Source: Candidatus Altimarinota bacterium (GTDB lineage Bacteria; Patescibacteriota; Gracilibacteria; CAIRYL01). From it: DNA of 64,000 nt. The stretch is from assembly GCA_965250085.1 (NCBI GenBank), contig OZ252287.1:608001-672000 (forward strand), written 5' to 3'. The notes under the pieces are model-generated. The model searched no databases and was not told the DNA's origin. It saw only the letters and a program-made list of their open reading frames with translations. The translations under genes were made by a program, and so were the position numbers. Shown piece by piece: positions 1-42,145 of the stretch. How positions within the stretch are numbered: position 1 is the stretch's first letter; each line of letters starts with the position of its first letter.

Positions 1-273
1 GGAGAGTTTTCAGAAAAACACGAAGAGAAGCTCAGAGAGATCTGCGATGGAGTCCTGCGCCATCGAGAGCGTGAGATCTCTTTGGTCGACAAGCTGAAGG
101 AATTGCAGGAGCCCAAATCAAGACGTCCAGGTTCTCTTCGAGCCGTTCATATTGCTCCTGTGGATGGAGGGGGGAAGAAGGATACGGCATTCAAAGCGGC
201 TGAAGTAGTCGCTTGGCTGATGAGAAACCAGCCTCAGGTCGTCGGAGTCACTTGGGGCGAGACACCCCAATAA
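1..273 (+). CDS. 5'-truncated hypothetical protein of the GC-rich element
   Basis: Frame 1 is open from position 1 (GEFSEKHEEKLREICDG...) to TAA at 273. Confidence 0.5.
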   Translation, partial: GEFSEKHEEKLREICDGVLRHREREISLVDKLKELQEPKSRRPGSLRAVHIAPVDGGGKKDTAFKAAEVVAWLMRNQPQVVGVTWGETPQ

Positions 274-342
274 CACCACGTGGCGCGCCATAAAGAGTTC
301 CATTTACGCCCAAGAACAGTATGATCAAACAGAGGATACGAT

Positions 343-1176
343 TCATAGAACACCTCCGGCCCAAAAGCCGCATGACTCTAAAGTAAGACCGGGCATATAG
401 AGCCTCATATCCGGAGCCTCTTCCTGAAAGGAACGATATGCGATGGCTCTCGGGTCGGTGTCACGTACGCGGCTGACAATTTCAAACATTGGTGTGGCAG
501 TACTATCTGGATGCAGGGCCGCTCGAACGCATGCGTCAGCGTTTACCCATTCTTGAGGCGTCGCTTGATGCAGGAGAACTTTCTCTAGCATAGCGGCATA
601 CCCCAAGAGCGCTTCCCTCTCCAGCGGCTCGGTCCAGTTGAGTTTGATGTAGCGCTCCACATCGTCTCGCACCCCATCCCCATTCGAGTCAACCCCTTCC
701 AGCGTTGCGTTGTTTAACTCTGGATCTGGCTCTGGAGGCAAACTCTCTTCAAGGGTCGCGACGCCCGTAATTACGAAGGGCAGCGGCTTCGAGAAGACCT
801 TGGGCTTCTTTGATTTCTTCCCAGCACCTCGACTCTTCGGGCTCGCCTCTCGGATTTTCAACGTCCCATCTTGAATGCCGACGAACGGTGCCGAGAGAAC
901 GCAGTCGATCGTAACTTCAGTCCCCGCACTCAAGACCGGAAGTTCGTTCGGTGTACAAGCAGTCCACTCATCGAGACTCGGTGTCACTTCGACAATCGTC
1001 TTTGGAAGATGCTCCAGAACATGTAGCGTCAGACGTACCGGCACACGATCACCAACTGCCAAGACGCGATTCACTTCTTTTGGCTCCCAGTCCACATATT
1101 GACTTGCCAGAAGAGGTATTGCCACCAGGGCCAGTGCCGCAAGAGTGAATCCGATTGAGATGATAGTTCTTCGCAT
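343..1176 (-). CDS. Secreted hypothetical protein with PPEPD...GVDSNGDGVRDDVE motif
   Basis: 277 aa ORF with N-terminal signal/TM segment, AAGGAG SD upstream and a DxNxDG Ca-binding-like motif. Confidence 0.75.
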   Translation of the reverse strand: MRRTIISIGFTLAALALVAIPLLASQYVDWEPKEVNRVLAVGDRVPVRLTLHVLEHLPKTIVEVTPSLDEWTACTPNELPVLSAGTEVTIDCVLSAPFVGIQDGTLKIREASPKSRGAGKKSKKPKVFSKPLPFVITGVATLEESLPPEPDPELNNATLEGVDSNGDGVRDDVERYIKLNWTEPLEREALLGYAAMLEKVLLHQATPQEWVNADACVRAALHPDSTATPMFEIVSRVRDTDPRAIAYRSFQEEAPDMRLYMPGLTLESCGFWAGGVL

Positions 1177-1207
1177 ATTCAGTCTCCTTATTCTCAGGAT
1201 GGACTAT

Positions 1208-1236
1208 ATGCTAGCAGAGCACAAATATAGTGTCAA
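1208..1236 (-). promoter_or_regulatory. Sigma70-like promoter of 343..1176
   Basis: TTGACA-17 nt-TAGCAT with an extended -10 TG on the minus strand. Confidence 0.5.
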
Positions 1237-1395
1237 CTGAGTCAGCATGCATAAGTATGATTACACATCTATGCTTGCAGCACACACCGACCGCCACGGG
1301 AGTCTTAGCGATGGAAATCACCAGCAATACATGATGCGGAGAAAAACTCCGAAGTTCGCCGACTAGCAGATCGGCTGCGAGAGATGGAAGGAGTC

Positions 1396-2052
1396 TTACT
1401 CCGCTTTCTTGGCTGCCCAGCGCGTTTCAGCTGCCTTTTTCGCAATCTCACTTCTTCTCTTAGGAGTCAAACTGCTTGCGCGAATGCTGCCGCCAAGGCT
1501 TTGAACACTTGAAGATTTCTCATTGACGAGCGAATAGAGACGTCGCCCGATCACGCCAGGGTTTCCATCGTAGCCGCACCAAAACTTCTCCCAGGTACCC
1601 TCGGAGACTCGACCTTCATTACGAGGAGAAAAAAGCTTTTGGGAGCGCACCTCAGCGTATTTCTCATACCGATCGATCGTAACCTTAAACCAAGTAATCG
1701 TATGCTTGGAAAGAGGTTTGTCGATCAGTCGAGCGATCTCATCTGCTGGAGGCTCTCGGCGACTTCGTATGTGGAGCATTCCCAACAGGCTTCGGTCTGC
1801 TTGAGTTAGCTCATTATCTGCATCCAAGACATATCGAACACACTTCTTCCAGCCGTCATAGGTCGCAAGTGAAGCTGGTTTCGTTTCTGCATCAGAAAGC
1901 TCGACTGGTGAATCAGAGTAGAGTAAAACCCAGGTGTCTAGTTGATCGAGAATAGCATCTGCTCGACCAACCAAGTCTTCGAGATGAACGGTAACTTCGT
2001 ACCTGTACTTTCGAAGATTATCCAGCTTTTTGGTGTGTTTGGGCATACTCAT
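1396..2052 (-). CDS. Hypothetical protein with C-terminal basic GGxxRAxxLTPxxRSEIAKKAAxxRW motif (common in phage/mobile-element proteins)
   Basis: Motif is in the translation; ORF is open to 2199, start at 2052 or 2046 preferred for SD-like GGAAGG/AGGA. Confidence 0.65.
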   Translation of the reverse strand: MSMPKHTKKLDNLRKYRYEVTVHLEDLVGRADAILDQLDTWVLLYSDSPVELSDAETKPASLATYDGWKKCVRYVLDADNELTQADRSLLGMLHIRSRREPPADEIARLIDKPLSKHTITWFKVTIDRYEKYAEVRSQKLFSPRNEGRVSEGTWEKFWCGYDGNPGVIGRRLYSLVNEKSSSVQSLGGSIRASSLTPKRRSEIAKKAAETRWAAKKAE

Positions 2053-2799
2053 CCTTCCGATATGTCCGGCGTTCGATAGCAAGATTTCGGCGTTTCCCAA
2101 TCTGGAAATCAGATCCAAATGCCAAAATTTATCGTGCTTTACAACATGGACTTGATCGTGATACCACTGCTTGCTCCCGCGCCCTGCGCAAGATTCCAAT
2201 CAAGTTTAGCATGCTTCTTCTACGGAACATCTTTGACCTTACCGTACAGACACCAAAGGCTTCTACCCACCACTAGTTTCATCGAAGCAAGCATCACCCC
2301 CGCATGCACAACCTGACATTGTGCAAAGAGTTTCCGTCCTTCCGACAAGTCAGGAGAACTCCAACTTTGCACGAATGCTGTGTTGTGCTCAGCGCCCAGA
2401 AAAATTGGAACGCGACTCCGCTAGCCTTCTGCGCGAAGACGCCAGAAGGTCAATATTATCTACCGCCATCCTCCCCGCCACCAACCATCAGCCTCGGCTG
2501 ACAGGTCTTCCACGGTTGACAAGTCTCTCTCGGCTACCAGCCTCTTCACCGACTCTTCCTTCGTGCGCTTCTTCCTGAATTCCTGCAGTCTTCATGAGTT
2601 CCTTTTCTGGTGCACCTTCAAAAGAAAAATTAGAGAACGCGAAGAATCTGGAAGTCACTTGTTTCTAAAGCTTTAGAGCTTCAGGATCTACCCGCTCACC
2701 CCACCCGCTTCCCATATCCGAGTGACGGACACTGCATACGGGTACCCCATGCGGATACCAGAAGAAACACTTCACTCTCCAAACTCCAGACTCCCTCCC

Positions 2800-3987
2800 T
2801 CACCTCTGATGAAGAGCAGCCAATAATTCATCACCGACGAGATCGACCGCACGCCTTACCGGATCATTCGCTAAGTGTGCATATCGAGCCGTGGTTGATG
2901 CTTGTGTATGTCCCAGCATTTTTCCAATAAGTGGAAGTGATAATCCAGCACCAGCTCCGAAGCTGGCATAGGTATGCCGCAAATCATGCAGCCGGACATC
3001 TGCGAGATTCGCTCTCTTCCGGATACGCCCCCAGGGCTTCGAGAGATTCACCAGATGCTGACCTTCTCTGGCTCCCGCAATCACATACGGGTTTCCTTTA
3101 ACACATTCCATCTTCTCCAGAACTGAGAAAACTCCTTCACTGACCACGACTATTCGTTTCCCTGTTTTACTGTCCGGTAAATAGAAACACCGATTGACCT
3201 CATCGATATCTTCCCAACGAAGACGCAGAATCTCATTGAGACGACAGCCGGTGAGAAGGAGGAGACGCAGAGCGGGGACAACACCAGGAAGCTCGGTGGC
3301 TTCCCGTTCCACTTCATCCAGCACGGCACCCAATCGTTTGAGTTCCTCCACGCTCAGAAATCGTTCCCGCTTTTCTTCCGTATATTTCTGGATATGCCGG
3401 CACGGATTTGTACTGTCCTGACGCCAACCCCAAACCTCTGCCAAGTGAAGAGATTTTGAGAGAAGGGCAAGTGTTCTGTTGGCCGCGTAGGGCGTGTCCT
3501 TCATGCCTGTATGCAGACGATCAATATCTTCTCGCGTAATGGCAGACACTTTCCGGCTTCCGAGACGCGGCAATATATGTAGTTCCCACATTCGCTCATC
3601 TGTTTTCGCACTACTCGCTTTTTTCTTCGGCGCATGATCGGACAGATACCGCTTCGCCAAATCCGACATTGTTGGAGACTTCAGCAAATCCATTCGCTCA
3701 CGACTCGGATCTCTTCCGTCCGTTACTTTCCCCAGAACCTTGCGGGCTTTTTTGCGGGCTTCGTCCAGCGTGAGAACTCCGTATTTGCCGAGCACCATGA
3801 TCCGTTTGCGACCCTGAACCCGGTACGACACCACAAACGATTTCTTCCCGCTTCGATAAATCCTCACACCAAAACCGGGCATAGCGTCATCCCATCGGTA
3901 ATCCGGTGTGTTGTTGTTCGAGGAAGCAGAAGAAACAGATGATGGCGAATACGTCATCGCATCAATGGCTCGCTTTGTCAGCTTCAT
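2800..3987 (-). CDS. int: Tyrosine recombinase/integrase with N-terminal arm-binding domain
   Basis: MKLTKRAID...WD...GFGVR arm-binding domain; catalytic TGCRLNE, HDLRH, LGH and Y (TARYAH). Confidence 0.95.
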   Translation of the reverse strand: MKLTKRAIDAMTYSPSSVSSASSNNNTPDYRWDDAMPGFGVRIYRSGKKSFVVSYRVQGRKRIMVLGKYGVLTLDEARKKARKVLGKVTDGRDPSRERMDLLKSPTMSDLAKRYLSDHAPKKKASSAKTDERMWELHILPRLGSRKVSAITREDIDRLHTGMKDTPYAANRTLALLSKSLHLAEVWGWRQDSTNPCRHIQKYTEEKRERFLSVEELKRLGAVLDEVEREATELPGVVPALRLLLLTGCRLNEILRLRWEDIDEVNRCFYLPDSKTGKRIVVVSEGVFSVLEKMECVKGNPYVIAGAREGQHLVNLSKPWGRIRKRANLADVRLHDLRHTYASFGAGAGLSLPLIGKMLGHTQASTTARYAHLANDPVRRAVDLVGDELLAALHQR

Positions 3988-4030
3988 TTCCTTCCTCTCT
4001 TCTCCACGCTTTGATCCGAGTTCTGGCAAA

Positions 4031-17564: not shown

Positions 17565-17722
17565 CCTTTGAGATTTTACAATTACTTCCGAAATGAAGAT
17601 TCTTTCATCCATTCAGGCGCCATATTATTTTTTCTTTGAATAGTCTCCAAGGAAAGTGCTCGCATATCACATTTACTAAAAAGCGCTTTCCTCATGAGGG
17701 TGTTATTTTTTTATATACCTCT

Positions 17723-19429
17723 ATGAAACATTGCACAGTTGGCATTATCGGTGGAAAAGGGAAAATGGGGCAATTTTTTGCCAGATTTTTTGAACACAAT
17801 GGATGCCAAGTTCTCATTTCTGATAAACGAACAAAACTCACAAATACACAAGTGGCGAGAAAGTCTGACATTGTAATCATTTCTGTCCCCATGGACAAAG
17901 TAGAGCACGTCATAGAAGAAGTAGGTCCTCATATGAAAAAAAGGGATTTGCTCATGGATGTAAATTCTATAAAGGAACCAGTACTCAAAAAGATGCTTGA
18001 ATGCTCAAAGAGTGCCGTACTGGGATGTCATCCACTTTTTGGACCAACAAATGTACTCCAAGGACAGGTTTGTGTGTTTTGTTCAGGGAGAGGTAAAAAG
18101 TGGGAAACTCTTATGAAGGACCTCTTTGAACAAAATGGTGCAGAAGTTCGATTTTTGAAAGCTCGTGAACATGATGAGCTTATGACTATTGTGCAGGGCC
18201 TTATGCACTTTTTGGATATTGCCGCTACAAAAACGCTACAAAGTACTCGGGTTCCTATCAAAAAATACTTTGATTTTCGCTCTCCTTCATATCGTCTGAA
18301 GCTTGATCTTATGGGTCGCACACTTTTTCAAGATGCAAATCTTTATGGCAATATTCAAATGCAAAACCCTCAAACAGTAGCAGTTCTCAAAAAGTTTTTT
18401 CACAATGCACACGAACTTCTCAGTATTATTGAAGAAAATAATATGAAGGAATTTCAAAAATATTGGACTGAATGCCAGAAGTACCTAGGGGATATGGCTG
18501 AGGTGTGTCAGGCTGAGTCAGATGAGATTATTGACTTTCTTTCTGCTGCATCTGCTTCACATGACGACACGTGGATCCAAGACGAACGAGTAGGTAATCT
18601 TGGGGTTTTGGGTCCGGAAAATACATTTTCTCATCTGGCAGCACAAAAATTTTTTCCAAAAGAAAAATCACTGGTGTTTTTTCGAACAATTCCAGAAATG
18701 TTTTTGACCTTTGAAAAAAAGAAAGTGCAAAATGTATTTCTCCCTGTAGAAAATAAGATACACGGAACTGTAGGAGAAACATTGGATGGACTTTTTGAGT
18801 CATCCGGGAAAATTCAAGCCATGTTTTCACTTCCAATTCACCTTACACTCGCCGGACTACATGGGAGTAAGCTCAAAAAAATTCAAAAAATATCCTCTCA
18901 TCCCCAAGCACTGGCCCAGTGCTCTGATGTGCTTAAAAAAATACTTCCGCATGCGGAGCTTGTCCCCGCGTCTTCAACTGCGATTGCTCTCCATGAGATT
19001 CTTAAAAAATCAGACCCATGTCATGCAGTAATTTGTGCTACCCAAGCAGCACAAAACATGGGACTAAATATTCTTGCCACAGATATTTCAAATACTCAGG
19101 AAAATGAGACGCGTTTTATTCTTCTCTCGCATGAAAAAGATAAAATTCTCTCGGCATCATCAAAATTTCAAAGCTCCGTTGTGTTCTACTTTGACCATGA
19201 CTCTCCCGGATCATTGGCTTCTGTGCTCAGCGACTTTTCAGGAGCAAATATTAACCTTACTAAAATAGAATCAAGGCCAGCAGGAAGAAATTTTGGAGAA
19301 TACTTATTCTTCCTCGACTTTGAAGGAAAAATCTACAATGACGCTGTTCAGGAAGTCCTCACAAAAGTAGAACACAAAGTAGCAATGCTCAAGGTTTTGG
19401 GATCGTATCCATTAATTTCGAAGGCATAA
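17723..19429 (+). CDS. tyrA-pheA: Fused prephenate dehydrogenase - prephenate dehydratase (with ACT domain)
   Basis: GIIGGKGKMG, HPLFGP and EHDELM; then LGPENTFS, SHPQALAQC, NETRF and INLTKIESRP. Confidence 0.9.
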   Translation: MKHCTVGIIGGKGKMGQFFARFFEHNGCQVLISDKRTKLTNTQVARKSDIVIISVPMDKVEHVIEEVGPHMKKRDLLMDVNSIKEPVLKKMLECSKSAVLGCHPLFGPTNVLQGQVCVFCSGRGKKWETLMKDLFEQNGAEVRFLKAREHDELMTIVQGLMHFLDIAATKTLQSTRVPIKKYFDFRSPSYRLKLDLMGRTLFQDANLYGNIQMQNPQTVAVLKKFFHNAHELLSIIEENNMKEFQKYWTECQKYLGDMAEVCQAESDEIIDFLSAASASHDDTWIQDERVGNLGVLGPENTFSHLAAQKFFPKEKSLVFFRTIPEMFLTFEKKKVQNVFLPVENKIHGTVGETLDGLFESSGKIQAMFSLPIHLTLAGLHGSKLKKIQKISSHPQALAQCSDVLKKILPHAELVPASSTAIALHEILKKSDPCHAVICATQAAQNMGLNILATDISNTQENETRFILLSHEKDKILSASSKFQSSVVFYFDHDSPGSLASVLSDFSGANINLTKIESRPAGRNFGEYLFFLDFEGKIYNDAVQEVLTKVEHKVAMLKVLGSYPLISKA

Positions 19430-25256: not shown

Positions 25257-25982
25257 TTACGCTTTTTGCTTTTTGGGGATTTTTGTACTCTCCCACATGT
25301 ATCCTCTTTCTCGAATGGTTCTTAGATGTGTTGAGATTTCTTTTCCGAGAAGTTTTTTCAAGTGTGTCATGTGTACTCTCAATTTATTCTTTTGATCTTC
25401 TTCTCGAGAATTGTCTTCACCCCATACATACGAAATAAGACTTTGATATGTCAAAGGTATATCGGGTTTTTGTAAAAATCTTTTTAGGAGAGTAAAGAGT
25501 ATGTTGCTGGGATACATTTCACGATCTCCAATAATAACCTTACGAAGATCTAAATCCATTTTAACTCCATCATGTTCAAGTACATTTGTGGAATTTTTAT
25601 CACAATGGAATCCTCTTCTTGCAGCCGCTTTTATACGAGCAATAACCTCCTTTGGCTTCCATGGTTTTTTAATAAAATCATCTCCACCAACATCAAGTGC
25701 ATCCCATGGAGTAATTTCATCTATTTTGCGTGCTGTAAGAAAAATAACTGGTGTTTGAATATTTTCTTTCCGTATCTCTTTTATAAGATGGATGCCTTGT
25801 TTCGCATTTTTTTCAGAAGAAAGATAATAATCACATACAATAACATCAAAATTGTCTTTTGTGAGTTTTTGTTTCGCTTCATCGTATGTTTCTGCGGTAT
25901 CGATATCCCATCCTTGCTTCTCAAGATACAACTTTATATTGCGCAAAACAGAAGGCTGATCGTCAATAACAAATACTTTCAT
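25257..25982 (-). CDS. OmpR-family response regulator
   Basis: VIDD, VCD, LTA and DDFIKKP receiver motifs; winged-helix TIRERGY. Confidence 0.9.
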   Translation of the reverse strand: MKVFVIDDQPSVLRNIKLYLEKQGWDIDTAETYDEAKQKLTKDNFDVIVCDYYLSSEKNAKQGIHLIKEIRKENIQTPVIFLTARKIDEITPWDALDVGGDDFIKKPWKPKEVIARIKAAARRGFHCDKNSTNVLEHDGVKMDLDLRKVIIGDREMYPSNILFTLLKRFLQKPDIPLTYQSLISYVWGEDNSREEDQKNKLRVHMTHLKKLLGKEISTHLRTIRERGYMWESTKIPKKQKA

Positions 25983-26084
25983 GGAAATAGGGGGTAAAAA
26001 CTTCTGTTTATTATAGAAGCATCTCTCCCAAATTTGCAAATATTAAGACTTTGTTAATATGAACTTTCTATTGGTATTCTACAA

Positions 26085-26663
26085 TTATAGTTCAACTTCA
26101 ATAAACTTTTGCACAAAAGTAACTTTTTTTTCTTCCGCGCCAAAAAGATAGAGCCCTATTTGATATGCGAGTTCTCCATTGTAAAGATTTTCTTTTTGGA
26201 GGCTTTGAGAAATATTTTTGGGCATGAGTTCCTTTTTTGGAGAAAAGTCATGCTGAACGATCAACTTGCAAGGCTCTTTTACAGAGATTCTTACAAAAGA
26301 TGATTTTTGAAAGAGTTTTTGCAGAATATACCTCAGAGCTGTCTCAAAGTAATGACGATCCACAGTAACTTCTACTGTAGGATCGATGTCGACAGTAAGT
26401 TGTATGTAATGAGAAATGATGGTGTCTTCAAGTCCGACGAGAAGAATATCTATGATTTCTCGAAGACACTGCTTTTGTGGAAAGTATTCTGGTTTCTCTC
26501 CGAGTAATATTTCTTCATGCTCAATAAGGACCACTGCAGCCTCAATCAACGGTTGAATTTTTTCTTTACTTCCTGAGAAATGATCGTTTTCTTCACAAAC
26601 CAAAGAAAGAATTGTGCAAATATTGAGAAGTTCATGACGGATAAACTGTTTAGAATCATTCAT
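26085..26663 (-). CDS. Degenerate histidine-kinase-like protein (DHp His, no G-boxes)
   Basis: FIRHELLN H-box and HATPase-like strands (VTVDRHYFETAL), lacking the N, G1 and G2 boxes. Confidence 0.6.
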   Translation of the reverse strand: MNDSKQFIRHELLNICTILSLVCEENDHFSGSKEKIQPLIEAAVVLIEHEEILLGEKPEYFPQKQCLREIIDILLVGLEDTIISHYIQLTVDIDPTVEVTVDRHYFETALRYILQKLFQKSSFVRISVKEPCKLIVQHDFSPKKELMPKNISQSLQKENLYNGELAYQIGLYLFGAEEKKVTFVQKFIEVEL

Positions 26664-26790
26664 ACAGAGAATATATGGGATTCTCTTTAAAAAAACTAGT
26701 ATTTGACTTTGTCTATGATCATGAATGTTAGATATTGTGTTTTTAAGCGGTTTAGATGTATATTGCATTCATACAACTCCATATGCAAAT

Positions 26791-27498
26791 ATGAATATTC
26801 TTATCGTGGAAGACGAGGTACCTATAGCACTCTTCGTTCAGAGGATTCTCAAAAAAGTTTCTGTGAGTAATCTTATTGATACCGCTCAGGGTTTCCAGGA
26901 AGCTTTTTCAAAGTTGTTTTCTGATATTTTTGATGTCGTTATCATTGATATTGATTTGGGAAAAGAAAAGCGAACTGGCATTGATCTTTGTGAAATCATC
27001 AGGTCTCGAGATAAATATATCCCAATAATCATTCTTACTGGATTTCACTCTCTTTCGTATATAGAAAAATCTTTTCTTGCGGGTGCAAATGATTACATCA
27101 CAAAGCCATTTCGTCCACGAGAATTAGAATTGAGGGTAGAAAGATGGAAAAAAATTTCGAACCGTAAAAAAGTTGAACAAAACATGGAGTATGAAGAACT
27201 CTCCTATGATATACAAAAAAACGAATTTTTTTTTAAGCATGAAAAACTGAATCTCACAAAAAGAAATAAAGAATTGCTTCTCTTATTTCTCAAAAACCCA
27301 GAAAGCATGCTTTCCTCCCAGTATATCAGAGCAAAATTCTGGGGGGATTCATATGACACGCAAAAGTCACGAAATCTTCGTTCTAATATTCATCTCTTAA
27401 GAAATTCCTTGGAAAACAAATGTGGAAACTGGATTCATACTACGAGGGGTGAGGGATACATATTACAAAAAAACTTTAGCAAATATAATTTTTCTTAA
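26791..27498 (+). CDS. OmpR-family response regulator
   Basis: MNILIVEDE, IID, GANDYITKPF and HTTRGEGY. Confidence 0.92.
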   Translation: MNILIVEDEVPIALFVQRILKKVSVSNLIDTAQGFQEAFSKLFSDIFDVVIIDIDLGKEKRTGIDLCEIIRSRDKYIPIIILTGFHSLSYIEKSFLAGANDYITKPFRPRELELRVERWKKISNRKKVEQNMEYEELSYDIQKNEFFFKHEKLNLTKRNKELLLLFLKNPESMLSSQYIRAKFWGDSYDTQKSRNLRSNIHLLRNSLENKCGNWIHTTRGEGYILQKNFSKYNFS

Positions 27499-27582
27499 AA
27501 AAATATTAAAAATATGAGGATTTGAATGCATTTAGGTTCAATAGTGCTCTATAGTGCTTGAGGGGAGGACTTACTAAGGTCT

Positions 27583-27972
27583 ATGAATCAAAATACTCTC
27601 AAGCACAAAATACTCATTATCGAAGACGACTCCGTCTTCTGCAAAGAGTGCTGTCAGGTGTTTTCGTCTCAAGAATTTGAAGTACAAGCGAGTACTACGA
27701 GTATGGGTGGTATTGTAAAAGCAGTGGAATTTCGTCCTGATGTGATTCTCTTGGATATCGTGATGCCTGAAGTAGATGGATATGAAATTATTGATGCACT
27801 GAGAAATAATTCAAATATGAATGTCATCATAATCGCCTATAGTAACATTACAGAAAACCTTCAAATACATCGTGCTCTTCAGCTTGGGGCAGATGATTTC
27901 TTTTCGAAAAGCACATGTCCGCCTAGTCAGGCTGTGCAGAAAGTCCAGCATATTTTATCTCAAAAAGCATAA
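27583..27972 (+). CDS. Single-domain response regulator
   Basis: IIEDD, LLDIVMP and GADDFFSK. Confidence 0.9.
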   Translation: MNQNTLKHKILIIEDDSVFCKECCQVFSSQEFEVQASTTSMGGIVKAVEFRPDVILLDIVMPEVDGYEIIDALRNNSNMNVIIIAYSNITENLQIHRALQLGADDFFSKSTCPPSQAVQKVQHILSQKA

Positions 27973-27991
27973 TATTCATTTTTCATCAAAA

Positions 27992-28354
27992 ATGACAAAA
28001 ATTTTATTTTTGGAAGATGAAAAAACCATTGGCCAAATGTACACAGATGCTTTTAAAAAGGCAGGGCATGATATTCTTTGGGTTACAAATGCAGAAGATG
28101 CTGCACTCAAAGCACGTGAATTCTTTGCCGATGTTGTTATTGCAGATTATGGCATTCAGGGTCATAAAATCTCTGGGCTTGATGTTATCCCTCATATTCG
28201 CAAAAATCTTCCTAACGCCCAAATCATCATGCTTTCAAATTATGGAAAATCTCAAATGGAAGAAGATTGTCTGACCGCCGGGGCAAATCATTATCTTCTC
28301 AAAATAGATACCCCACCTAAAAAATTGGTAGAGTATATTGATCACCTCGTCTGA
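27992..28354 (+). CDS. Single-domain response regulator
   Basis: FLEDE, IAD, MLSN and GANHYLLK. Confidence 0.88.
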   Translation: MTKILFLEDEKTIGQMYTDAFKKAGHDILWVTNAEDAALKAREFFADVVIADYGIQGHKISGLDVIPHIRKNLPNAQIIMLSNYGKSQMEEDCLTAGANHYLLKIDTPPKKLVEYIDHLV

Positions 28355-28363
28355 AATATGCCA

Positions 28364-30439
28364 TTATGAGGGGATTAAAAAGCATACAGTAGCTCCTCCC
28401 CCTGGAGTATTTTCCGCCCAAATCTTGCCACTATGGAGTTTTATTATCTTCTTGCAAAGGTAGAGACCCAGTCCTATCCCCATGCCCATGGTGGCATTTG
28501 TGGTCTGAAACTTATCAAAAACGCTTTCTTTATCTCCATCTGTTATTCCATTTCCATTATCTTGAACACAAATCTTTATGTGATTTTTTTCTTTCGAAAG
28601 CACAAGGTTGATTTTTCCGCCTGAAGGAGTAAATTTCATAGCATTTCCCAAAAGATTGTGAAGCACTTGTCGAATCTGTTCTACATCAATAGAGAGAGTC
28701 TGTTTTTTCTTAAGATTATCTTTAAAAGAAAACTTGTAGGACTTTTCCTTCATCAGAGAAGTAAATTCTTCCGTAATTTCCTGAAGAAAATGAGCGATAT
28801 CAATTTCTTGTGAGAAATATTGTATTTTTCCAAGTTCATACTGTTGTACTTCAAAAAATTTTTCTGTGAGATTTTTGAGATCTTCCAACGCACGAGAAAT
28901 AGTTTTTGTGTCTGAGATAAATTCCGTATCTTCCTCATGTGTATCAATTACATCTTGTAGCTTAAATATTGCAATACTCAGAGGTGTCCTGAGCTCATGT
29001 GCCGCAAGAGTCATAAAATCAGACTGTTGCCTTACCAGTGTTTTTAGTTTTTCTGTTTTTTCTCGGATAATGAATTTGAGCATATCTTTTTCTTCTTCAA
29101 AATTATTCTGGAGAAGAATATTCATGAATGTTGTTTCTAGATTTGGAATGCATTCAAGAATGCTCTCAATTTCTTCCTTTGTGTAAGATGCATCTTTTTC
29201 TTTGTATCCCAGTATAAATATTCCAATAAGCTTTTCTTCTGCAAACAGTGGAAAGCAGAGAGCAACATCGAGCTTTTTGAGAGCAAAGAGTTCAACCTCT
29301 CTTCTTTTTTTTGAGACTGGATTTTTCAGAAAGATTTCCTCTGCCACAAGGACTTTCTTCTTCTTTGTTAACCCTTTTGTAAATTGATTTTTCACATAGA
29401 CAGGAACAGCTATGTTTTTTTTCGTATTTCTGAGTACAAAAACTCTTGCATTTGGAATGTTGAGTTTCATTTCAAAAGTTTGATCCAATAAAGATTGGAG
29501 GTGTTTATATGTGGTGCATGCATATATTTTTGTTCGAAACTTTCGAAGAGCGTTTTTAAAATTTCGAAGGTCAGAAGGAAGAAATTGTGGAAATATTTTG
29601 GAAACTTCTACAAAAGCCCCAAGGGCGATCAGCCCACTGATAATATCTCTAAAAACATGGCTCTTCATGAGAGAAAACATACTGATGCCCTGGTACATAA
29701 GGTAGAAGATAACAAGAAATACACTAAGTAATATGATTTTTCTCACAATATTAAGAGTAATGCTGGAGAGATTAAAGAATCTATACCTATGAATTGAATA
29801 AAAACAAGAGATAACAATAGGGGTTATCCAAACATAGCTATAGATAAATTGAGATTGTATGCCAAAAACGGGGAGTATCCCGTTGCTAACAATCAGAATG
29901 CTAATTGCTATAATAAAGACCCAGAAAGCATTTTCAAATTTCAATTTTTCTAAACCTTGTAAGGAATTCATTTTTTTGAATCCAAGAAAAAAGGTGGTAA
30001 TTAGATAAATAAAAACGTGACTCATATAGATCCAGTATGCTTCTCCAAGTTCTACGTTTGGACCTGCCTCTGTCATAACCTCATTTTTATCTACAAGGGG
30101 TGTAAGCGTTGTGAGGATGGAAAACAATATGACCTCTGCAAACACCACCTTCTTGAGCAAAGGCGAGAATTTAATGGTTTCACGGGGAAAATTGTAGAAA
30201 AATAAAGGAAGACCAAAGAAAAAGAACAGACCTACTGCATAGTTGAGTCTGCCTACGAGCAAAAGATGATCTCCCAAATCGAGATATATGTACATGTACA
30301 GTGTTACTGTCCATAGCAACAAGCCAGCAGAGAATATGGCAAAAGATCTATTGATCCATGCTTTCTTGTTTTGCACTAGAGTAATAACAAGCAACACTAG
30401 ATACAAAATAGTCGTAATGATGTATCCAAGTTTCACCAT
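28364..30439 (-). CDS. Membrane histidine kinase (7TM-type sensor, GAF-like linker, HisKA, HATPase)
   Basis: Multi-TM N-terminus, AAHELRTPL, NLLGNAMKF, DNGNG and GIGLGL. Confidence 0.93.
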   Translation of the reverse strand: MVKLGYIITTILYLVLLVITLVQNKKAWINRSFAIFSAGLLLWTVTLYMYIYLDLGDHLLLVGRLNYAVGLFFFFGLPLFFYNFPRETIKFSPLLKKVVFAEVILFSILTTLTPLVDKNEVMTEAGPNVELGEAYWIYMSHVFIYLITTFFLGFKKMNSLQGLEKLKFENAFWVFIIAISILIVSNGILPVFGIQSQFIYSYVWITPIVISCFYSIHRYRFFNLSSITLNIVRKIILLSVFLVIFYLMYQGISMFSLMKSHVFRDIISGLIALGAFVEVSKIFPQFLPSDLRNFKNALRKFRTKIYACTTYKHLQSLLDQTFEMKLNIPNARVFVLRNTKKNIAVPVYVKNQFTKGLTKKKKVLVAEEIFLKNPVSKKRREVELFALKKLDVALCFPLFAEEKLIGIFILGYKEKDASYTKEEIESILECIPNLETTFMNILLQNNFEEEKDMLKFIIREKTEKLKTLVRQQSDFMTLAAHELRTPLSIAIFKLQDVIDTHEEDTEFISDTKTISRALEDLKNLTEKFFEVQQYELGKIQYFSQEIDIAHFLQEITEEFTSLMKEKSYKFSFKDNLKKKQTLSIDVEQIRQVLHNLLGNAMKFTPSGGKINLVLSKEKNHIKICVQDNGNGITDGDKESVFDKFQTTNATMGMGIGLGLYLCKKIIKLHSGKIWAENTPGGGATVCFLIPS

Positions 30440-30525
30440 CTTCTTTGGGTAACGATGATAGGCGAATTGTATCAATTCAAACGGAAAACTCAATTGAAGA
30501 ATTTTCTGTCTGAATATTTGCTCTT

Positions 30526-31287
30526 TTAAAAATCTTGAAAAACAATGTCGGTGATTTTTAAATGATTTCTTGTAAATTCTATAGCCTTTTCAGGTGTGAA
30601 GTGCTTACACGTATAAATGTCGACAGCAAATCTACTGGTATCCCAATGGGCGATAGTTCCTGAGGTTTCCCAGTGCATCCATGCGGTTAGATTATGGATA
30701 ATGGGATCCGATAGTTTATCCATAAAAAGAACTTTGCATAAACTTTGCATATAATCTCTTATTTGTGCTTCAGAGATTGATTCGCTGAGAATGCCTGCTA
30801 TTGATAATCGCTGTCTCAATATATGAGGTGCCAACTCTCTCCAAGTTTCAGCTCCTGGATTCTGCATCGTTTTATGGACAGTGGTTTCACTTGGAGCGCC
30901 AAAAAAACTCCTAGTATGATCAACGACGGAGGGAATATTTGGAAGTGAAGCAGGTGTAGAAATGTCCACGCTCACAAAAGGGTATGTTTCTTTCTCCTCT
31001 TCATCCCAGGCATAAAGATGGATAGCAGATTGATCTTCTAATGGTACCCAACCCGAAAGTCCATATTTTGGAGAGAGATGAGTTTCTGGAATTCGTATTG
31101 GTTGAATATTTAAGGTGTCGGAAAGCTCTTTTAAATATCTTTGAATTTTTTCAACGCTAGTATCCCCAGAGCTCACGGGCTCTGGGAAAGTAGCTTCTAT
31201 TACGAGCGTGTCCCTCGGGAATGGCGATATCCCTTTTGCAGATTCTGCTTCTTTTGCCGTAGGGATATCTGTTGTATTTTGTGTCAT
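30526..31287 (-). CDS. Tandem S-adenosylmethionine decarboxylase (SpeD)-fold protein
   Basis: Two repeats: GLSGWVPLEDQSAIHLYAW...VSVDIST and WRELAP.ILRQRL...AWMHWETSG...VDIYTCKHF. Confidence 0.75.
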   Translation of the reverse strand: MTQNTTDIPTAKEAESAKGISPFPRDTLVIEATFPEPVSSGDTSVEKIQRYLKELSDTLNIQPIRIPETHLSPKYGLSGWVPLEDQSAIHLYAWDEEEKETYPFVSVDISTPASLPNIPSVVDHTRSFFGAPSETTVHKTMQNPGAETWRELAPHILRQRLSIAGILSESISEAQIRDYMQSLCKVLFMDKLSDPIIHNLTAWMHWETSGTIAHWDTSRFAVDIYTCKHFTPEKAIEFTRNHLKITDIVFQDF

Positions 31288-31313
31288 AAAGGAATTTTAT
31301 TTTCTTATCAAAA

Positions 31314-32264
31314 TCAAGCTGTAGACAGAGTAATTTGATTCACAGGTGGCATCATTCCTTCAACAAACTTTCTTAAATTTTGAAAAGTTATTACTGTTTT
31401 CGTATTTTTATCTGCATATACATCTTGAAAGCCCCAAGCAGACCCCATGATCTTATGTGCCTTGCTTCCCAAAGATGTATAGTTAATGGCGGGAGGATCC
31501 TCTCCTTCCATTTCTTGCAATGCACGGGAAAGCATACTGTGAGCAAGTGGTATAGCCATGCCTGAGCTCCTATGGGGCAATGCAATGCCCCATTCTGACA
31601 TATAAAATACCTGAGATTCATCAGAAATATCGTCATCCGTGCAATCACTCACTTTTTGTAAATATGTTTCGTATTCCAATCCAGGAAACATATCTGCAAG
31701 TTTATCTTCCCAAATCTGTTGAAAGTTTGTATACCAACCATAACAAAATCCAACGAGTGATTGTTGTTGTCTGGAAAAAAGAAAGATAGCGAATATCTGT
31801 TTCTGAAAACTCTCAATAATGCTCTGTAATGTTTTTTGTATAGGGTAAAATAAGCCCATGGGCTCAGAGCATGCTGGACATAAATAATCAGAGGGATTTA
31901 CCGGCCTCGTTCTTTCTAATTCAACCAAGGATGAGTTTTGTTGGCTTAGTGAAATATAAACATCCGATATACCAAGTACTTCTGAGCAACTTCTACGAAC
32001 ACAGGTAAGATATTCCTTCCATGGACCTCTTCCATATACATCTCGATAGGTATTTGTAAGATCTATGAAAAATTGATCCAAATGTCCATTTCTAATGGCA
32101 GTTGTTAACTTATTCGAATGTTGGAAAAATCCAACATGATATAATCCATTATCATTTCTATTATTTACTATTTCCATTCCTCCCTCATAAACAAGAGTAT
32201 CTGGTGACAAAATATCTTGTCCTGTGTCAATTTCTGCCGAACTTACATCCTCTGTATGATTCAT
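31314..32264 (-). CDS. GNAT-family acyltransferase with inserted Cys4 zinc finger
   Basis: YRDVY..GPWKE, C(x4)C...CPAC, LVGFCYG and motif A YMSEWGIALPHRSSGMA. Confidence 0.7.
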   Translation of the reverse strand: MNHTEDVSSAEIDTGQDILSPDTLVYEGGMEIVNNRNDNGLYHVGFFQHSNKLTTAIRNGHLDQFFIDLTNTYRDVYGRGPWKEYLTCVRRSCSEVLGISDVYISLSQQNSSLVELERTRPVNPSDYLCPACSEPMGLFYPIQKTLQSIIESFQKQIFAIFLFSRQQQSLVGFCYGWYTNFQQIWEDKLADMFPGLEYETYLQKVSDCTDDDISDESQVFYMSEWGIALPHRSSGMAIPLAHSMLSRALQEMEGEDPPAINYTSLGSKAHKIMGSAWGFQDVYADKNTKTVITFQNLRKFVEGMMPPVNQITLSTA

Positions 32265-32478
32265 GGGAAAAACAAATCGCAGTGAGTTGCTCTTTTTTGA
32301 TGAGGATATACATACATATGTCAAAAAACTGTCGACAATTTAGTAAAAACAATAAAACCTTTTATTTTATTCTTAAGAATGCTCAGAAATTGTTGAAATT
32401 TGGAAAAAAATGATGAGATTCACAAAAAAAGTCTCCAAAAATGACTTTCGAGGTGGTTATGATGAGTGATAAAAATTC

Positions 32479-33932: not shown

Positions 33933-34805
33933 TTAAAAAGGGAGATCTTCTGGCTTGATGTCACTTTCATAGTTGATTTCTGGCACATCAGTGGGTTCTG
34001 CTTTTTGTGGTGCTGGATTTTCAGAAGCGGCCTCATTCCCTACCGGTACGGCTTCTTGTCCAGCGCCTCTTCCATCAGAGGAAGGAAGATTTTGAGATGG
34101 ATGTCCGAGAGCAAGGATACTCTTGGCGTTAATTTCTGTGGTATACCTCTTTTCTCCATCAGGAGTCTCCCATGATCTGGTCTGCACATTGCCAGTAATA
34201 AATACTCGCTGTCCTTTTTTAACAATTTTTTCCGTATCGTCAGCGAGAGCACCCCAAGCAACAATGTTGTGAAACTCTGCCTCTTTTTGTTGCTCATTGG
34301 TTTCTTTGTTGGTCCAAGTGCGATTGGTGGCCACACTGAGTTTTATCACGCTTTTTCCACTGGGCGTTTGTTTTATTTCTGGATCTTGAGTGACGTTTCC
34401 CAAAACATCTGCGCGATTGAGCCCTCCAGCAACTGCAAATGAATCATCCAGTGGAGAAAGTGGCACTCGTGGATCCAGAAGAATCACTGGATCGTATGGA
34501 GAAAGAACAATCTTGGTTTTGTATTTTTTCTTTCCCTGGTCGTCTTCCCAAGAATCTGTTTTGAGCCTTCCGGAAGCATAGACTTGCGAGCCCTTGCGTG
34601 CATATTCACTGAGAAATTTGGCACTCTGTCCCCACACGGTTACCGTATGAAATGATGAGCTTATACCCTCACTTCCATCATCTTTTTGAAATTTTGATCT
34701 TACTTGAACATTGAGATCGGTGACGGACATGCCACTGGGCAAGTCTCTAACCTCTATATCTTCGGTGAGATATCCAATAATCTGTACAGAATTTACGTCT
34801 CGCAT
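33933..34805 (-). CDS. ssb: Single-stranded DNA-binding protein with two OB folds
   Basis: Two SSB repeats (NSVQIIG...G.LKTDSW; NRADVLG...GNVQTRSW) and an acidic tail ending DLPF. Confidence 0.92.
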   Translation of the reverse strand: MRDVNSVQIIGYLTEDIEVRDLPSGMSVTDLNVQVRSKFQKDDGSEGISSSFHTVTVWGQSAKFLSEYARKGSQVYASGRLKTDSWEDDQGKKKYKTKIVLSPYDPVILLDPRVPLSPLDDSFAVAGGLNRADVLGNVTQDPEIKQTPSGKSVIKLSVATNRTWTNKETNEQQKEAEFHNIVAWGALADDTEKIVKKGQRVFITGNVQTRSWETPDGEKRYTTEINAKSILALGHPSQNLPSSDGRGAGQEAVPVGNEAASENPAPQKAEPTDVPEINYESDIKPEDLPF

Positions 34806-41338: not shown

Positions 41339-42145
41339 TTAAGGATTATGTATTTGTTTTTGAAATTCATCGGGAGTGATATGAATCATTTTTGTCATTC
41401 CTACCAGATCAAAAATTTCGAATATTTTTTCAGGAACATTTTGGAGTACTAAGTCACCGTTTTTTTTCTTCATTTTTTGTTTCCAATCAGCAACTTTTGC
41501 AAGAAATGTAGAATTGCAAAATTCAAGATGTGAAAAATCTAAAATCAAAAGCGTCGGTTCTTCTATATCATCAATAAACGAATCTATTGGCTCTGTATTT
41601 TTTTGAAATGTCACATCATCTATCTGCCCAGAAATAGGAAGTTTTTCTAAAGGGAGATGTGGATTGGGAAGACTTTTAAGCGAAGTATTGGCATGTATTT
41701 TGGGTACAGATTCTTCGCCTTCCACCAATATTTTCGTAAAAATCATGCAAATACCTCCTCTGGTACCATCATGTACTTTCAAAGAATCTGCCCATTTGCT
41801 AGAAATTTGTGCAAGTCCTCGACCCGATTGCTTTCCGAGATCTGTATTCGATTCTTCTGCAACGATTATTTTTTTTAGCTCCTGGGCCGAAATTTTCTTT
41901 TCTCCTCCTTCGTCTTCAAGAGAAACTTGAAGAGTCGGGTCTTCAAACTCAAAAGTAATGTAAATATTCGATTCCTCTGTAGATCCATACCGAACTGCAT
42001 TCATGAACAATTCATCAAACACAAGCTGTAGGTGCGAAAGGGTGCTTCCTTCAAATCCACATTCTTGAAATACACACATTGCAATGCTCCTAAGAGCAGG
42101 AGCAAGGTGAATATTGGCAGGAATGGTGAGAGGATACCTCTTCAT
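41339..42145 (-). CDS. RsbW-like anti-sigma kinase fused to a STAS domain
   Basis: ELFMNAVRYG, EDEG and SGRGL; C-terminal FCNSTFL...FDLVG. Confidence 0.85.
   Translation of the reverse strand: MKRYPLTIPANIHLAPALRSIAMCVFQECGFEGSTLSHLQLVFDELFMNAVRYGSTEESNIYITFEFEDPTLQVSLEDEGGEKKISAQELKKIIVAEESNTDLGKQSGRGLAQISSKWADSLKVHDGTRGGICMIFTKILVEGEESVPKIHANTSLKSLPNPHLPLEKLPISGQIDDVTFQKNTEPIDSFIDDIEEPTLLILDFSHLEFCNSTFLAKVADWKQKMKKKNGDLVLQNVPEKIFEIFDLVGMTKMIHITPDEFQKQIHNP

Follow-up and report, generated by a model that had tools for sequence, protein, structure and literature searches.

A candidate operon for a tandem SpeD-fold protein, a Cys4-bearing GNAT and a 7TM-type histidine kinase in a candidate phyla radiation bacterium, with a proposed role in amine-based signalling

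Quorum-sensing systems such as LuxM/LuxN and CqsA/CqsS are pairs of a signal synthase and a receptor, the latter being a multi-pass kinase. For CqsA/CqsS the pairing of synthase and receptor is described in the abstract of a published account (PMC13729885). Homologues of the S-adenosylmethionine decarboxylase (AdoMetDC) SpeD have been re-purposed as amino-acid (arginine/ornithine) decarboxylases, among others in candidate phyla radiation bacteria, and the SpeD1-SpeD2 fusions known from bacteria are, in the sections of that study available to us, located upstream of speE and possess an N-terminal half that is a true AdoMetDC (Li et al., 2023, PMC10407285). Among acyltransferases of the GNAT fold, arylalkylamine and dopamine/spermine N-acetyltransferases act on decarboxylated amino acids. 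In the present study a locus is analyzed in which genes for a tandem SpeD-fold protein, a GNAT-fold acyltransferase and a multi-pass histidine kinase stand side by side. It lies at positions 28,364 to 32,264 of a stretch of 64,000 nucleotides (contig OZ252287.1, 608,001 to 672,000, assembly GCA_965250085.1) of a Candidatus Altimarinota bacterium; this whole stretch is called the window below, and all coordinates refer to it.

Calling of open reading frames (ORFs) over the 64-kb window gave three co-directional frames on the minus strand, encoding a GNAT-fold acyltransferase of 316 amino acids (aa) (31314..32264 from ATG, with an alternative TTG start at 32324), a tandem SpeD-fold protein of 253 aa (30526..31287) and a sensor histidine kinase of 691 aa (28364..30439 from ATG; 709 aa and 28364..30493 from TTG; ORF and Pfam). 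The GNAT gene and the SpeD-like gene are 26 nt apart, and the gap between the SpeD-like gene and the kinase measures 86 nt if the kinase is read from its ATG and 32 nt if it is read from its TTG. A spacer of 214 nt separates the GNAT gene from the upstream TRAM/U5-methyltransferase gene. In an initial annotation, this arrangement had been described as three co-directional genes with gaps of 26 and 86 nt, encoding a GNAT with a Cys4 insert, a protein with two SpeD-like domains and a multi-pass kinase lacking a large extracellular domain; each of these structural statements was borne out by the analyses reported here, the second gap being shorter if the TTG start is used. Scans of the window for terminator-like sites performed at chance level (three against 3.1 expected by shuffling, none of them on the minus strand), promoter-like sites numbered 13 against 16.6 expected by shuffling, and neither Rfam nor tRNA scans of the window gave a match. 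Of the sequencing runs listed for the locus, four, all from one study, are DNA runs and none is an RNA run.

That the three genes constitute one functional unit is very likely, and it is their conserved linkage in other genomes which speaks for it. The initial annotation had staked its proposal on a co-occurrence with 7TM kinases; this was searched from the SpeD-like gene, the GNAT and the kinase as separate anchors, and the linkage held. For the SpeD anchor a pattern scan with one genome per species yielded 45 loci from 45 species, in which partners were sought by a six-frame scan with hidden Markov models (HMMs); many of the carriers are related, and the numbers of loci are not numbers of independent events. 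A GNAT-type partner was present in 37 of the 45 loci. Five of these have the tandem SpeD form beside a GNAT of the same rare family as that of the window (family A2), and 32 combine a single-domain protein bearing the motif HWETSG with a protein of about 270 aa from a second, FeeM/LuxI-like family (A4). A multi-pass sensor was found in 31 of the 45 loci, represented by 7TM kinases in four (L002, L008, L015 and L019) and by proteins sharing a transmembrane (TM) domain of about 330 aa (A6) in 27; correct-frame Pfam searches confirmed 24 of the latter as GGDEF+EAL proteins, one as GGDEF only and two as fragments. The sensor gene may be co-directional, convergent or divergent, and the carriers are distributed over Actinomycetota, Acidobacteria, Burkholderiales, a deltaproteobacterium, Rhodospirillales and Patescibacteria.

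The matches shown by A4 were weak: five of 14 members matched Acetyltransf_5 (best E 0.0069), and TIGR03694, an exosortase-associated acyltransferase, and LasI were matched with E 6e-6 and E 1.2, respectively. Look-alikes of A4 in the Atlas include FeeM and autoinducer-synthase clusters. For the N-terminal domain of the actinobacterial TM-GGDEF-EAL family, a Pfam search up to E 1 returned nothing beyond chance-level hits. Homology between the GNAT families A2 and A4 was considered and rejected, as they aligned over the GNAT core motif only (hhalign probability 6%), and none was detectable between the 7TM region of the kinases (A5) and the TM domain of the GGDEF-EAL proteins (hhalign probability 0.2%). 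Some single-domain HWETSG genes are without a GNAT partner: in L013 the gene is followed by an ATP-grasp-like ORF, in L012 by a 367-aa ORF of no known kind and an aminotransferase. Judged from these neighbours, other amide-forming or amine-handling partners of SpeD-like genes may exist.

Starting from the GNAT, an A2 match was obtained in eight of 401 evenly drawn genomes of the phylum, the genome under study included, and the seven other genomes contributed nine loci. In five of these nine an A5-type kinase follows at most two genes downstream, and one locus is too short to judge. Starting from the kinase, 14 kinase-domain matches were found in 11 of 61 relatives, and an A2 GNAT is situated immediately upstream in 10 of the 14. 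The tandem SpeD gene occurs in nine of 61 genomes, again including that of the window, and a genome of the same order (G014) possesses the GNAT–kinase pair without it. In three Patescibacteria (L070, L071 and L072), distant A2 GNATs have no kinase beside them and are surrounded by genes for histidyl-tRNA synthetase, an aromatic amino acid lyase resembling HutH and an M20 or AstE/AspA-type deacylase; these neighbourhoods suggest a metabolic cassette for N-acyl-histidine or N-acyl-histamine.

Fusions and exchanged enzymes add to the picture obtained from linkage. GNAT and tandem SpeD parts are joined in a single chain in P0034 (583 aa), in P0043 (525 aa, with the motif HWESSG) and in L073, where the 7TM kinase comes after the fusion. 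An HDC-type pyruvoyl decarboxylase (PF02329) is inserted between GNAT and kinase in L067 (E 1e-55) and L068 (E 1e-47), while a pyridoxal phosphate (PLP)-dependent ornithine/arginine/diaminopimelate decarboxylase precedes GNAT and kinase as a separate gene in L069 and forms one chain with the GNAT in L087. In another three relatives, a methyltransferase domain is attached to the GNAT-like gene that precedes the kinase, namely SET in L081 and in L078, the latter without a match to the A2 model, and a class I methyltransferase in L082. On the evidence of these gene orders, the appearance of three unrelated decarboxylase folds in one slot is to be read as non-orthologous displacement, and this displacement is the strongest argument for regarding the SpeD-fold protein as an amino-acid decarboxylase. 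The sequence of decarboxylase and then GNAT, as proposed in the initial annotation, thus gains support from fusions and swaps that is strong, albeit indirect. A hint of imidazole amines as the products of some modules comes from the HDC-type partners and from the histidine-related genes around distant A2 GNATs. A complex prediction for the GNAT and the tandem protein scored 0.00 in two runs, for which the controls were not folded, and it speaks neither for nor against binding.

The tandem protein appears as a single-chain pseudo-dimer in Pfam, tblastn, AlphaFold (AF2) and Foldseek analyses. Its N-terminal half corresponds to 30883..31215 (column counts in 28 tandem homologues), and its C-terminal half, with the motifs HWETSG and YTC, to 30529..30840. 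Pfam AdoMet_dc (PF02675) matches the C-terminal half alone (residues 173-250, E 2.7e-10, 41 bits against a cut-off of 25); by tblastn, each half matches single-domain SpeD-like genes of other genomes. An AF2 model with a pLDDT of 89.2 was superimposed by Foldseek on the AdoMetDC of Thermotoga maritima (1tmi, 1tlu and 1vr7) over about 120 columns with a TM score to the target of 0.74-0.76, and on human AdoMetDC (1msv) over about 300 columns with a TM score of 0.5. The profile of the tandem family found nothing at E<=1 among PDB sequences. When the profile of the single-domain family was aligned to 1tlu with HMMER, the serine of ETS fell on Ser63 and the cysteine of YTC on Cys83; the title of PDB entry 1tmi names an S63A non-processing mutant. 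From this alignment, Ser209 within HWETSG (residues 205-210, 30658..30675) is the candidate pyruvoyl precursor.

The two halves are conserved in a complementary manner. Among the 28 tandem homologues, H205-W-E-T-S-G210 and Y225-T-C227 of the C-terminal half were kept throughout, whereas the N-terminal half has retained the equivalent of the serine in 16 and that of the cysteine in one. Conversely, H90, Y92, W94 and D95 of the N-terminal half were found in all 28, and the equivalent positions of the C-terminal half are variable. In eukaryotic AdoMetDC one half provides the pyruvoyl serine and the cysteine, and the other the processing histidine and the ribose-binding glutamate, while prokaryotic single-domain enzymes carry the union of both residue sets (PMC1282579, in the part of the paper that was available). 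Because the conservation in the tandem family is complementary and the eukaryotic halves divide their residues alike, the pattern is as would be expected of a pseudo-dimer with exactly one composite working site, which is therefore predicted here. A search of the genome with PF02675 returned no candidates and missed even the gene of the window, and is too insensitive to judge whether other SpeD copies are present.

The GNAT contains a Cys4 insert (C88, C93 ... C129, C132; 31869..32003) that, from the conservation of its cysteines, is a putative zinc ribbon in which zinc binding would be expected. The protein matched no Pfam or NCBIfam family at E<=0.01, its family profile retrieved Naa50 as the best PDB sequence at an E-value of only 0.6, and a word-index homology search recovered nothing except the protein itself (one of 969 candidates). 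An exhaustive HMMER search of 1.84 billion representatives produced 77 cluster representatives at E<=0.001, eight of which reached E<=1e-30; family A2 is thus real but rare. An alignment of 48 members gave the signature YRDxFG...WGEYLxC...C...CPxC, with C88 invariant and C93, C129, C132, R74, W82, E84, Y85, G172 and R232 conserved to at least 90%, and the CxxC pairs are retained in distant members as well. An AF2 model built on the A2 alignment (pLDDT 90.2, pTM 0.88) had 198 PDB chains at E<=0.001 in Foldseek, GNATs on top, and 217 chains at Z>=8 in VIA-align, where the top 50 were all GNATs with Z 11.5-13.9, so the fold was recovered by two aligners. Within about two Z units lie NatD, Ard1, the tabtoxin resistance protein, arylalkylamine N-acetyltransferases (AANATs), RpaI (Z 12.7, 186 aligned), LasI (Z 11.8) and FeeM, the last at rank 43 in Foldseek. 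Of the link to LuxI- and FeeM-type synthases drawn in the initial annotation, the shared GNAT fold stands; membership in these groups is not demonstrable, since the protein has no Pfam match to Autoind_synth (PF00765) or FeeM (PF21926) and is tied with many GNAT classes. It is best treated as a generic GNAT, for which a LuxI/FeeM-type function is a possibility. The coenzyme A (CoA) pyrophosphate loop of GNATs follows the motif Q/R-x-x-G-x-G/A, and the loop of the window protein reads R232-S-S-G-M-A.

The kinase is composed of a multi-pass sensor region of HisKA_7TM type (29585..30439; sub-threshold HisKA_7TM score, hydropathy and family HMM A5) and of HisKA phospho-acceptor and HATPase_c domains (28370..29026; Pfam). 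A hydropathy scan gave about nine membrane segments with loops of at most about 20 aa between them, in agreement with the lack of a large extracellular domain. The N-terminal 330 aa cover positions 3-222 of the 224 of the HisKA_7TM model (PF16927) with E 5.1e-4, although the 20.4 bits stay below the cut-off of 28.6; among the kinases found by the A5 HMM, those of L008 (38.9 bits), L067 (40.4), L068 (41.7) and L073 (34.5) exceed this cut-off. HATPase_c was matched with E 6.5e-27 and 94.6 bits, HisKA with E 1.5e-4 and 22.2 bits, just below its cut-off of 26.9, and the C-terminal 230 aa by 80 NCBIfam kinase models. A GAF_2 match is weak in the window kinase, and the kinases of sister modules carry clear GAF domains. 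Alignments with the orthologues in L002 (40% identity) and L015 (33% identity) begin at the ATG at 30439.

Two stand-alone receiver proteins are encoded on the plus strand beside the kinase, one at 27992..28354, convergent with it (Response_reg E 3.9e-15), and a second at 27583..27972 (Response_reg E 1.6e-19). A convergent gene for a protein consisting of a receiver domain only also follows the kinase in L002 (43% identity) and L015 (32% identity), and the receiver at 27992..28354 is probably the partner of the kinase. The kinase is one of just two clear histidine kinases of the genome, and four of the seven receiver domains of the genome adjoin it at 25.6-28.3 kb of the window. The region 25257-28354 is a dense signalling island of two OmpR-type response regulators and the two stand-alone receivers. 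Between the OmpR-type regulators there is an ORF of 227 aa (26085-26768, minus strand) without a Pfam match, in which an H-box-like RHELLN was noticed by eye; its product may belong to the island as a phosphotransfer protein or a degenerate kinase.

The genome consists of a single contig of 1,368,807 bp and is 97% complete; its description as a reduced candidate phyla radiation genome in the initial annotation is reasonable. It reads cleanly under translation table 11. In several relatives of the same class, homologous genes contain in-frame TGA codons, 11 in the kinase of G060 (L081) and three each in G059 and G040, a pattern that fits a reading of TGA as an amino acid in these lineages. The absence of spermidine synthase noted for the window extends to the genome as a whole, in which no Spermine_synth match was obtained (10 of 14 control genomes gave a match), and the argument which the initial annotation drew from it against a plain polyamine role accordingly holds genome-wide. 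A search for short domains found no acyl-carrier PP-binding domain (11 of 14 controls positive) and the genome has one ketoacyl-synthase-like frame.

We propose that an amine made by the decarboxylase is N-acylated by the GNAT and that this product, or the pathway, is sensed by the kinase, a reading to which we would give roughly an even chance. In this scheme, the tandem SpeD-fold protein would be a pyruvoyl-type decarboxylase with one composite site, to which the C-terminal half would contribute Ser209, the candidate pyruvoyl residue, and Cys227 as proton donor, and the N-terminal half the strand His90-x-Tyr92-x-Trp94-Asp95; its substrate would be an amino acid, or possibly S-adenosylmethionine (SAM), and its product a primary amine. 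The zinc-ribbon GNAT would then N-acylate this amine, the acyl group in this genome being most likely acetyl. As ligand of the adjacent HisKA_7TM-GAF histidine kinase we envisage this acylated amine, or else the pathway flux; the kinase in turn would signal to the stand-alone receiver proteins encoded beside it. We infer that the tandem protein processes itself, which substrate and acyl donor are used, which way information flows and whether the compound leaves the cell; of all parts of the mechanism, the direction of this flow is the least secure.

A number of observations weigh against this proposal. Co-transcription would follow from short gaps and the lack of a predicted terminator, and no exporter is part of the operon. 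With regard to the enzymes, the tandem protein reaches 24 bits where the AdoMetDC equivalog TIGR03330 (NCBIfam) has a cut-off of 75.65, and in the profile alignment to 1tlu the HWETSG family has threonine at the position of T. maritima Glu62 and tyrosine at that of His68, on account of which self-processing is not assured; an invariant histidine sits two residues ahead of this tyrosine. In the GNAT, only Arg232 of the R-x-x-G-x-A motif of the CoA loop is conserved family-wide (at least 90% in 48 homologues). The missing PP-binding domain makes long-chain N-acyl products doubtful in this genome, and a site embedded in the membrane does not readily suggest an acetylated amine as its ligand; because of the cytoplasmic GAF-like region of the kinase, the ligand could moreover be located inside the cell, and secretion of a signal would not be required. 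Fusions with SET or class I methyltransferase domains fit a modification of protein lysines as well as a tailoring of small amines. Finally, the linkage has its gaps. The tandem SpeD gene is patchy, with none in 11 genomes of the same family and none in eight of the same order. Eight of the 45 SpeD-like loci have no GNAT partner, one of them being cut by the contig end, and 14 of the 45 have no detected TM sensor, among them L014 with a GGDEF-EAL gene cut by the contig end, L003 with a hybrid kinase, L004 with a hemerythrin-receiver protein and several short contigs. Four of the 14 kinases are without a detected GNAT (L078, L080 at a contig start, L083 and L084), and three of the nine A2 loci are kinase-less, being found among genes for HisRS, a HutH-like lyase and an M20 or AstE/AspA deacylase, from which it follows that A2 GNATs can serve plain metabolism.

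The most probable of the rival explanations, which we nevertheless consider rather unlikely, reverses the roles within the module: the kinase would sense a cue from outside (an amino acid, a free amine, pH or a host compound), and decarboxylase and GNAT would not supply the ligand but form the response or feedback arm, which would detoxify amines, consume protons or remove the cue. Acid resistance offers well-known cases of amino-acid decarboxylase systems that have regulators of their own, and decarboxylation followed by N-acetylation is a common way of neutralising amines. Linkage alone cannot separate a kinase that senses its own module's product from enzymes that act on what is sensed, and A2 GNATs without a kinase are also met in catabolic histidine contexts; in these small genomes, however, the kinase is seldom without the GNAT (10 of 14 have it). 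What is encoded next to the sensors also fits a response arm poorly, as the sole receivers conserved beside the kinase in L002 and L015 lack a DNA-binding output, the sensor in Actinomycetota and other phyla is a GGDEF-EAL enzyme that does not itself control transcription, and an amino-acid/amine antiporter is missing from the operon.

It is improbable that the GNAT is instead a protein acyltransferase, directed at a lysine or the N-terminus of the kinase, a receiver or another protein, with the SpeD-fold protein as a non-catalytic partner or regulator. Its structural neighbours can be quoted on both sides, since many of the top ones are protein acetyltransferases (NatD, Naa50/60, Ard1 and RimI), but matches in the same narrow range of Z are spread over many substrate classes. 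The same applies to the SpeD-fold protein, for which the N-terminal domain of human spermine synthase (3c6k), a domain not known to be catalytic, was among the AdoMetDC-fold matches of Foldseek, whereas the full set of candidate catalytic residues is strictly conserved in the tandem protein. The GNAT-like genes fused to methyltransferases of the SET (L078 and L081) and class I type (L082) would agree with protein modification; against it, the three unrelated decarboxylase families in the same slot of the module argue that decarboxylation is a required activity.

Plain polyamine metabolism, with an AdoMetDC for spermidine, a SpeG-like acetyltransferase and a kinase adjacent by accident, is highly improbable: the AdoMet_dc match, a SAM synthetase encoded in the genome and the existence of SpeD-SpeD fusions with genuine AdoMetDC activity (in the accessible portion of PMC10407285) are outweighed by the genome search that found no spermidine synthase, a score far under the TIGR03330 cut-off, a degenerate N-terminal half with no speE following, where the fusions treated in that portion have an active N-half and speE next, a sensor linkage conserved across phyla and the swapping of the SpeD-fold gene for HDC-type or PLP decarboxylases in sister modules.

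The remainder of the window contains several features of independent interest. Positions 1-4029 have a G+C content of about 0.51 compared with about 0.38 in the remaining window, and a phage-type integrase gene (2800-4029, minus strand; Phage_integrase and Arm-DNA-bind_3) ends this high-G+C stretch, which is probably the edge of an integrated element. A protein of 597 aa (17636-19429, plus strand) is a fusion of prephenate dehydrogenase, prephenate dehydratase and an ACT domain, an unusual join of enzymes of the tyrosine and phenylalanine branches. A single-strand-binding protein of 290 aa (33933-34805, minus strand) possesses two SSB/OB domains (Pfam SSB in two stretches, E 5e-62). A further fusion of 268 aa (41339-42145, minus strand) unites an anti-sigma-type kinase domain (HATPase_c_2) with STAS, and judged by its domains it would combine a kinase of the partner-switching type with the antagonist of that kinase.

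In the literature searched, no description was found of a module of SpeD-fold protein, GNAT and 7TM kinase or of the HWETSG family, nor of the actinobacterial trio of SpeD-like, FeeM-like and TM-GGDEF-EAL proteins. The publications found on HisKA_7TM are surveys of archaeal and eukaryotic kinases. The main text of a survey of quorum-sensing genes in these phyla (PMC7567580) does not mention a decarboxylase, acetyltransferase, GNAT, 7TM or histidine kinase, and the synthase–kinase neighbours in its Table S4 might overlap with the loci reported here.

We know of no ligand for any HisKA_7TM kinase, and the enzyme neighbours offer a concrete and cheap route to candidate ligands for these sensors as well as for those of TM-GGDEF-EAL type. 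It is conceivable, and put forward tentatively, that decarboxylase–GNAT pairs make an unrecognised class of signals, N-acylated or otherwise tailored biogenic amines, which would be read by dedicated multi-pass receptors; with the same reserve, these receptors might be HisKA_7TM kinases in the candidate phyla radiation and TM-GGDEF-EAL proteins in Actinomycetota and other phyla. If this were true, the swapping of enzymes (SpeD, HDC, PLP, SET or class I methyltransferase) would create lineage-specific 'dialects', and the system could be a main cell-cell or cell-host channel of ultra-small episymbionts that possess one or two kinases. Should the reading hold, a new chemical signalling system would extend across several phyla, candidate phyla radiation bacteria, whose biology is mostly inferred from genomes, would gain a testable signalling circuit, and the tandem protein would represent a second, independent invention of the one-site pseudo-dimeric AdoMetDC, with the halves opposite to the eukaryotic order.

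Compared with the known systems, the tandem protein resembles eukaryotic class 2 AdoMetDC (human 1msv/1jl0) in that one chain holds two SpeD-fold halves, the catalytic residues are divided between them and one site is left. It differs in the reversed order of the halves, the C-terminal one bearing the candidate pyruvoyl serine and the cysteine and the N-terminal one the histidine strand, in the cleavage dipeptide, which would be Thr-Ser and not Glu-Ser, in its much smaller size of 253 aa, and in being linked to a GNAT and a sensor in place of aminopropyl transferases. With the bacterial SpeD1-SpeD2 fusions it shares the tandem SpeD-fold domains in a bacterium; unlike these, as far as the available sections of the report describe them (PMC10407285), it is encoded in a genome without speE, has a degenerate N-terminal half and the motif HWETSG, and has a GNAT and a sensor as neighbours. 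The GNAT has the fold of FeeM and LuxI in common with these synthases, RpaI, LasI and FeeM being among its structural matches, and departs from them by its Cys4 insert and by its ties with dozens of other GNAT classes. Amine N-acetyltransferases are likewise close in structure, insect AANATs ranking among the best Foldseek and VIA matches (4fd6, 6v3t, 3te4 and 5yag), at an identity of about 10-13%, which is a likeness at the level of the fold and not above that to other GNATs. As in LuxM/LuxN and CqsA/CqsS, a candidate synthase gene adjoins a helix-bundle kinase without a large outside domain, and the pairing is conserved across genomes; in contrast to both, the enzymes are unrelated to LuxM or CqsA, the sensor is of the HisKA_7TM type and the system is known from its genes alone. 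A synthase beside a multi-pass receptor is thus an arrangement of a known kind, and what is new, as far as could be determined, are the enzymes, the receptor family and the breadth of its distribution.

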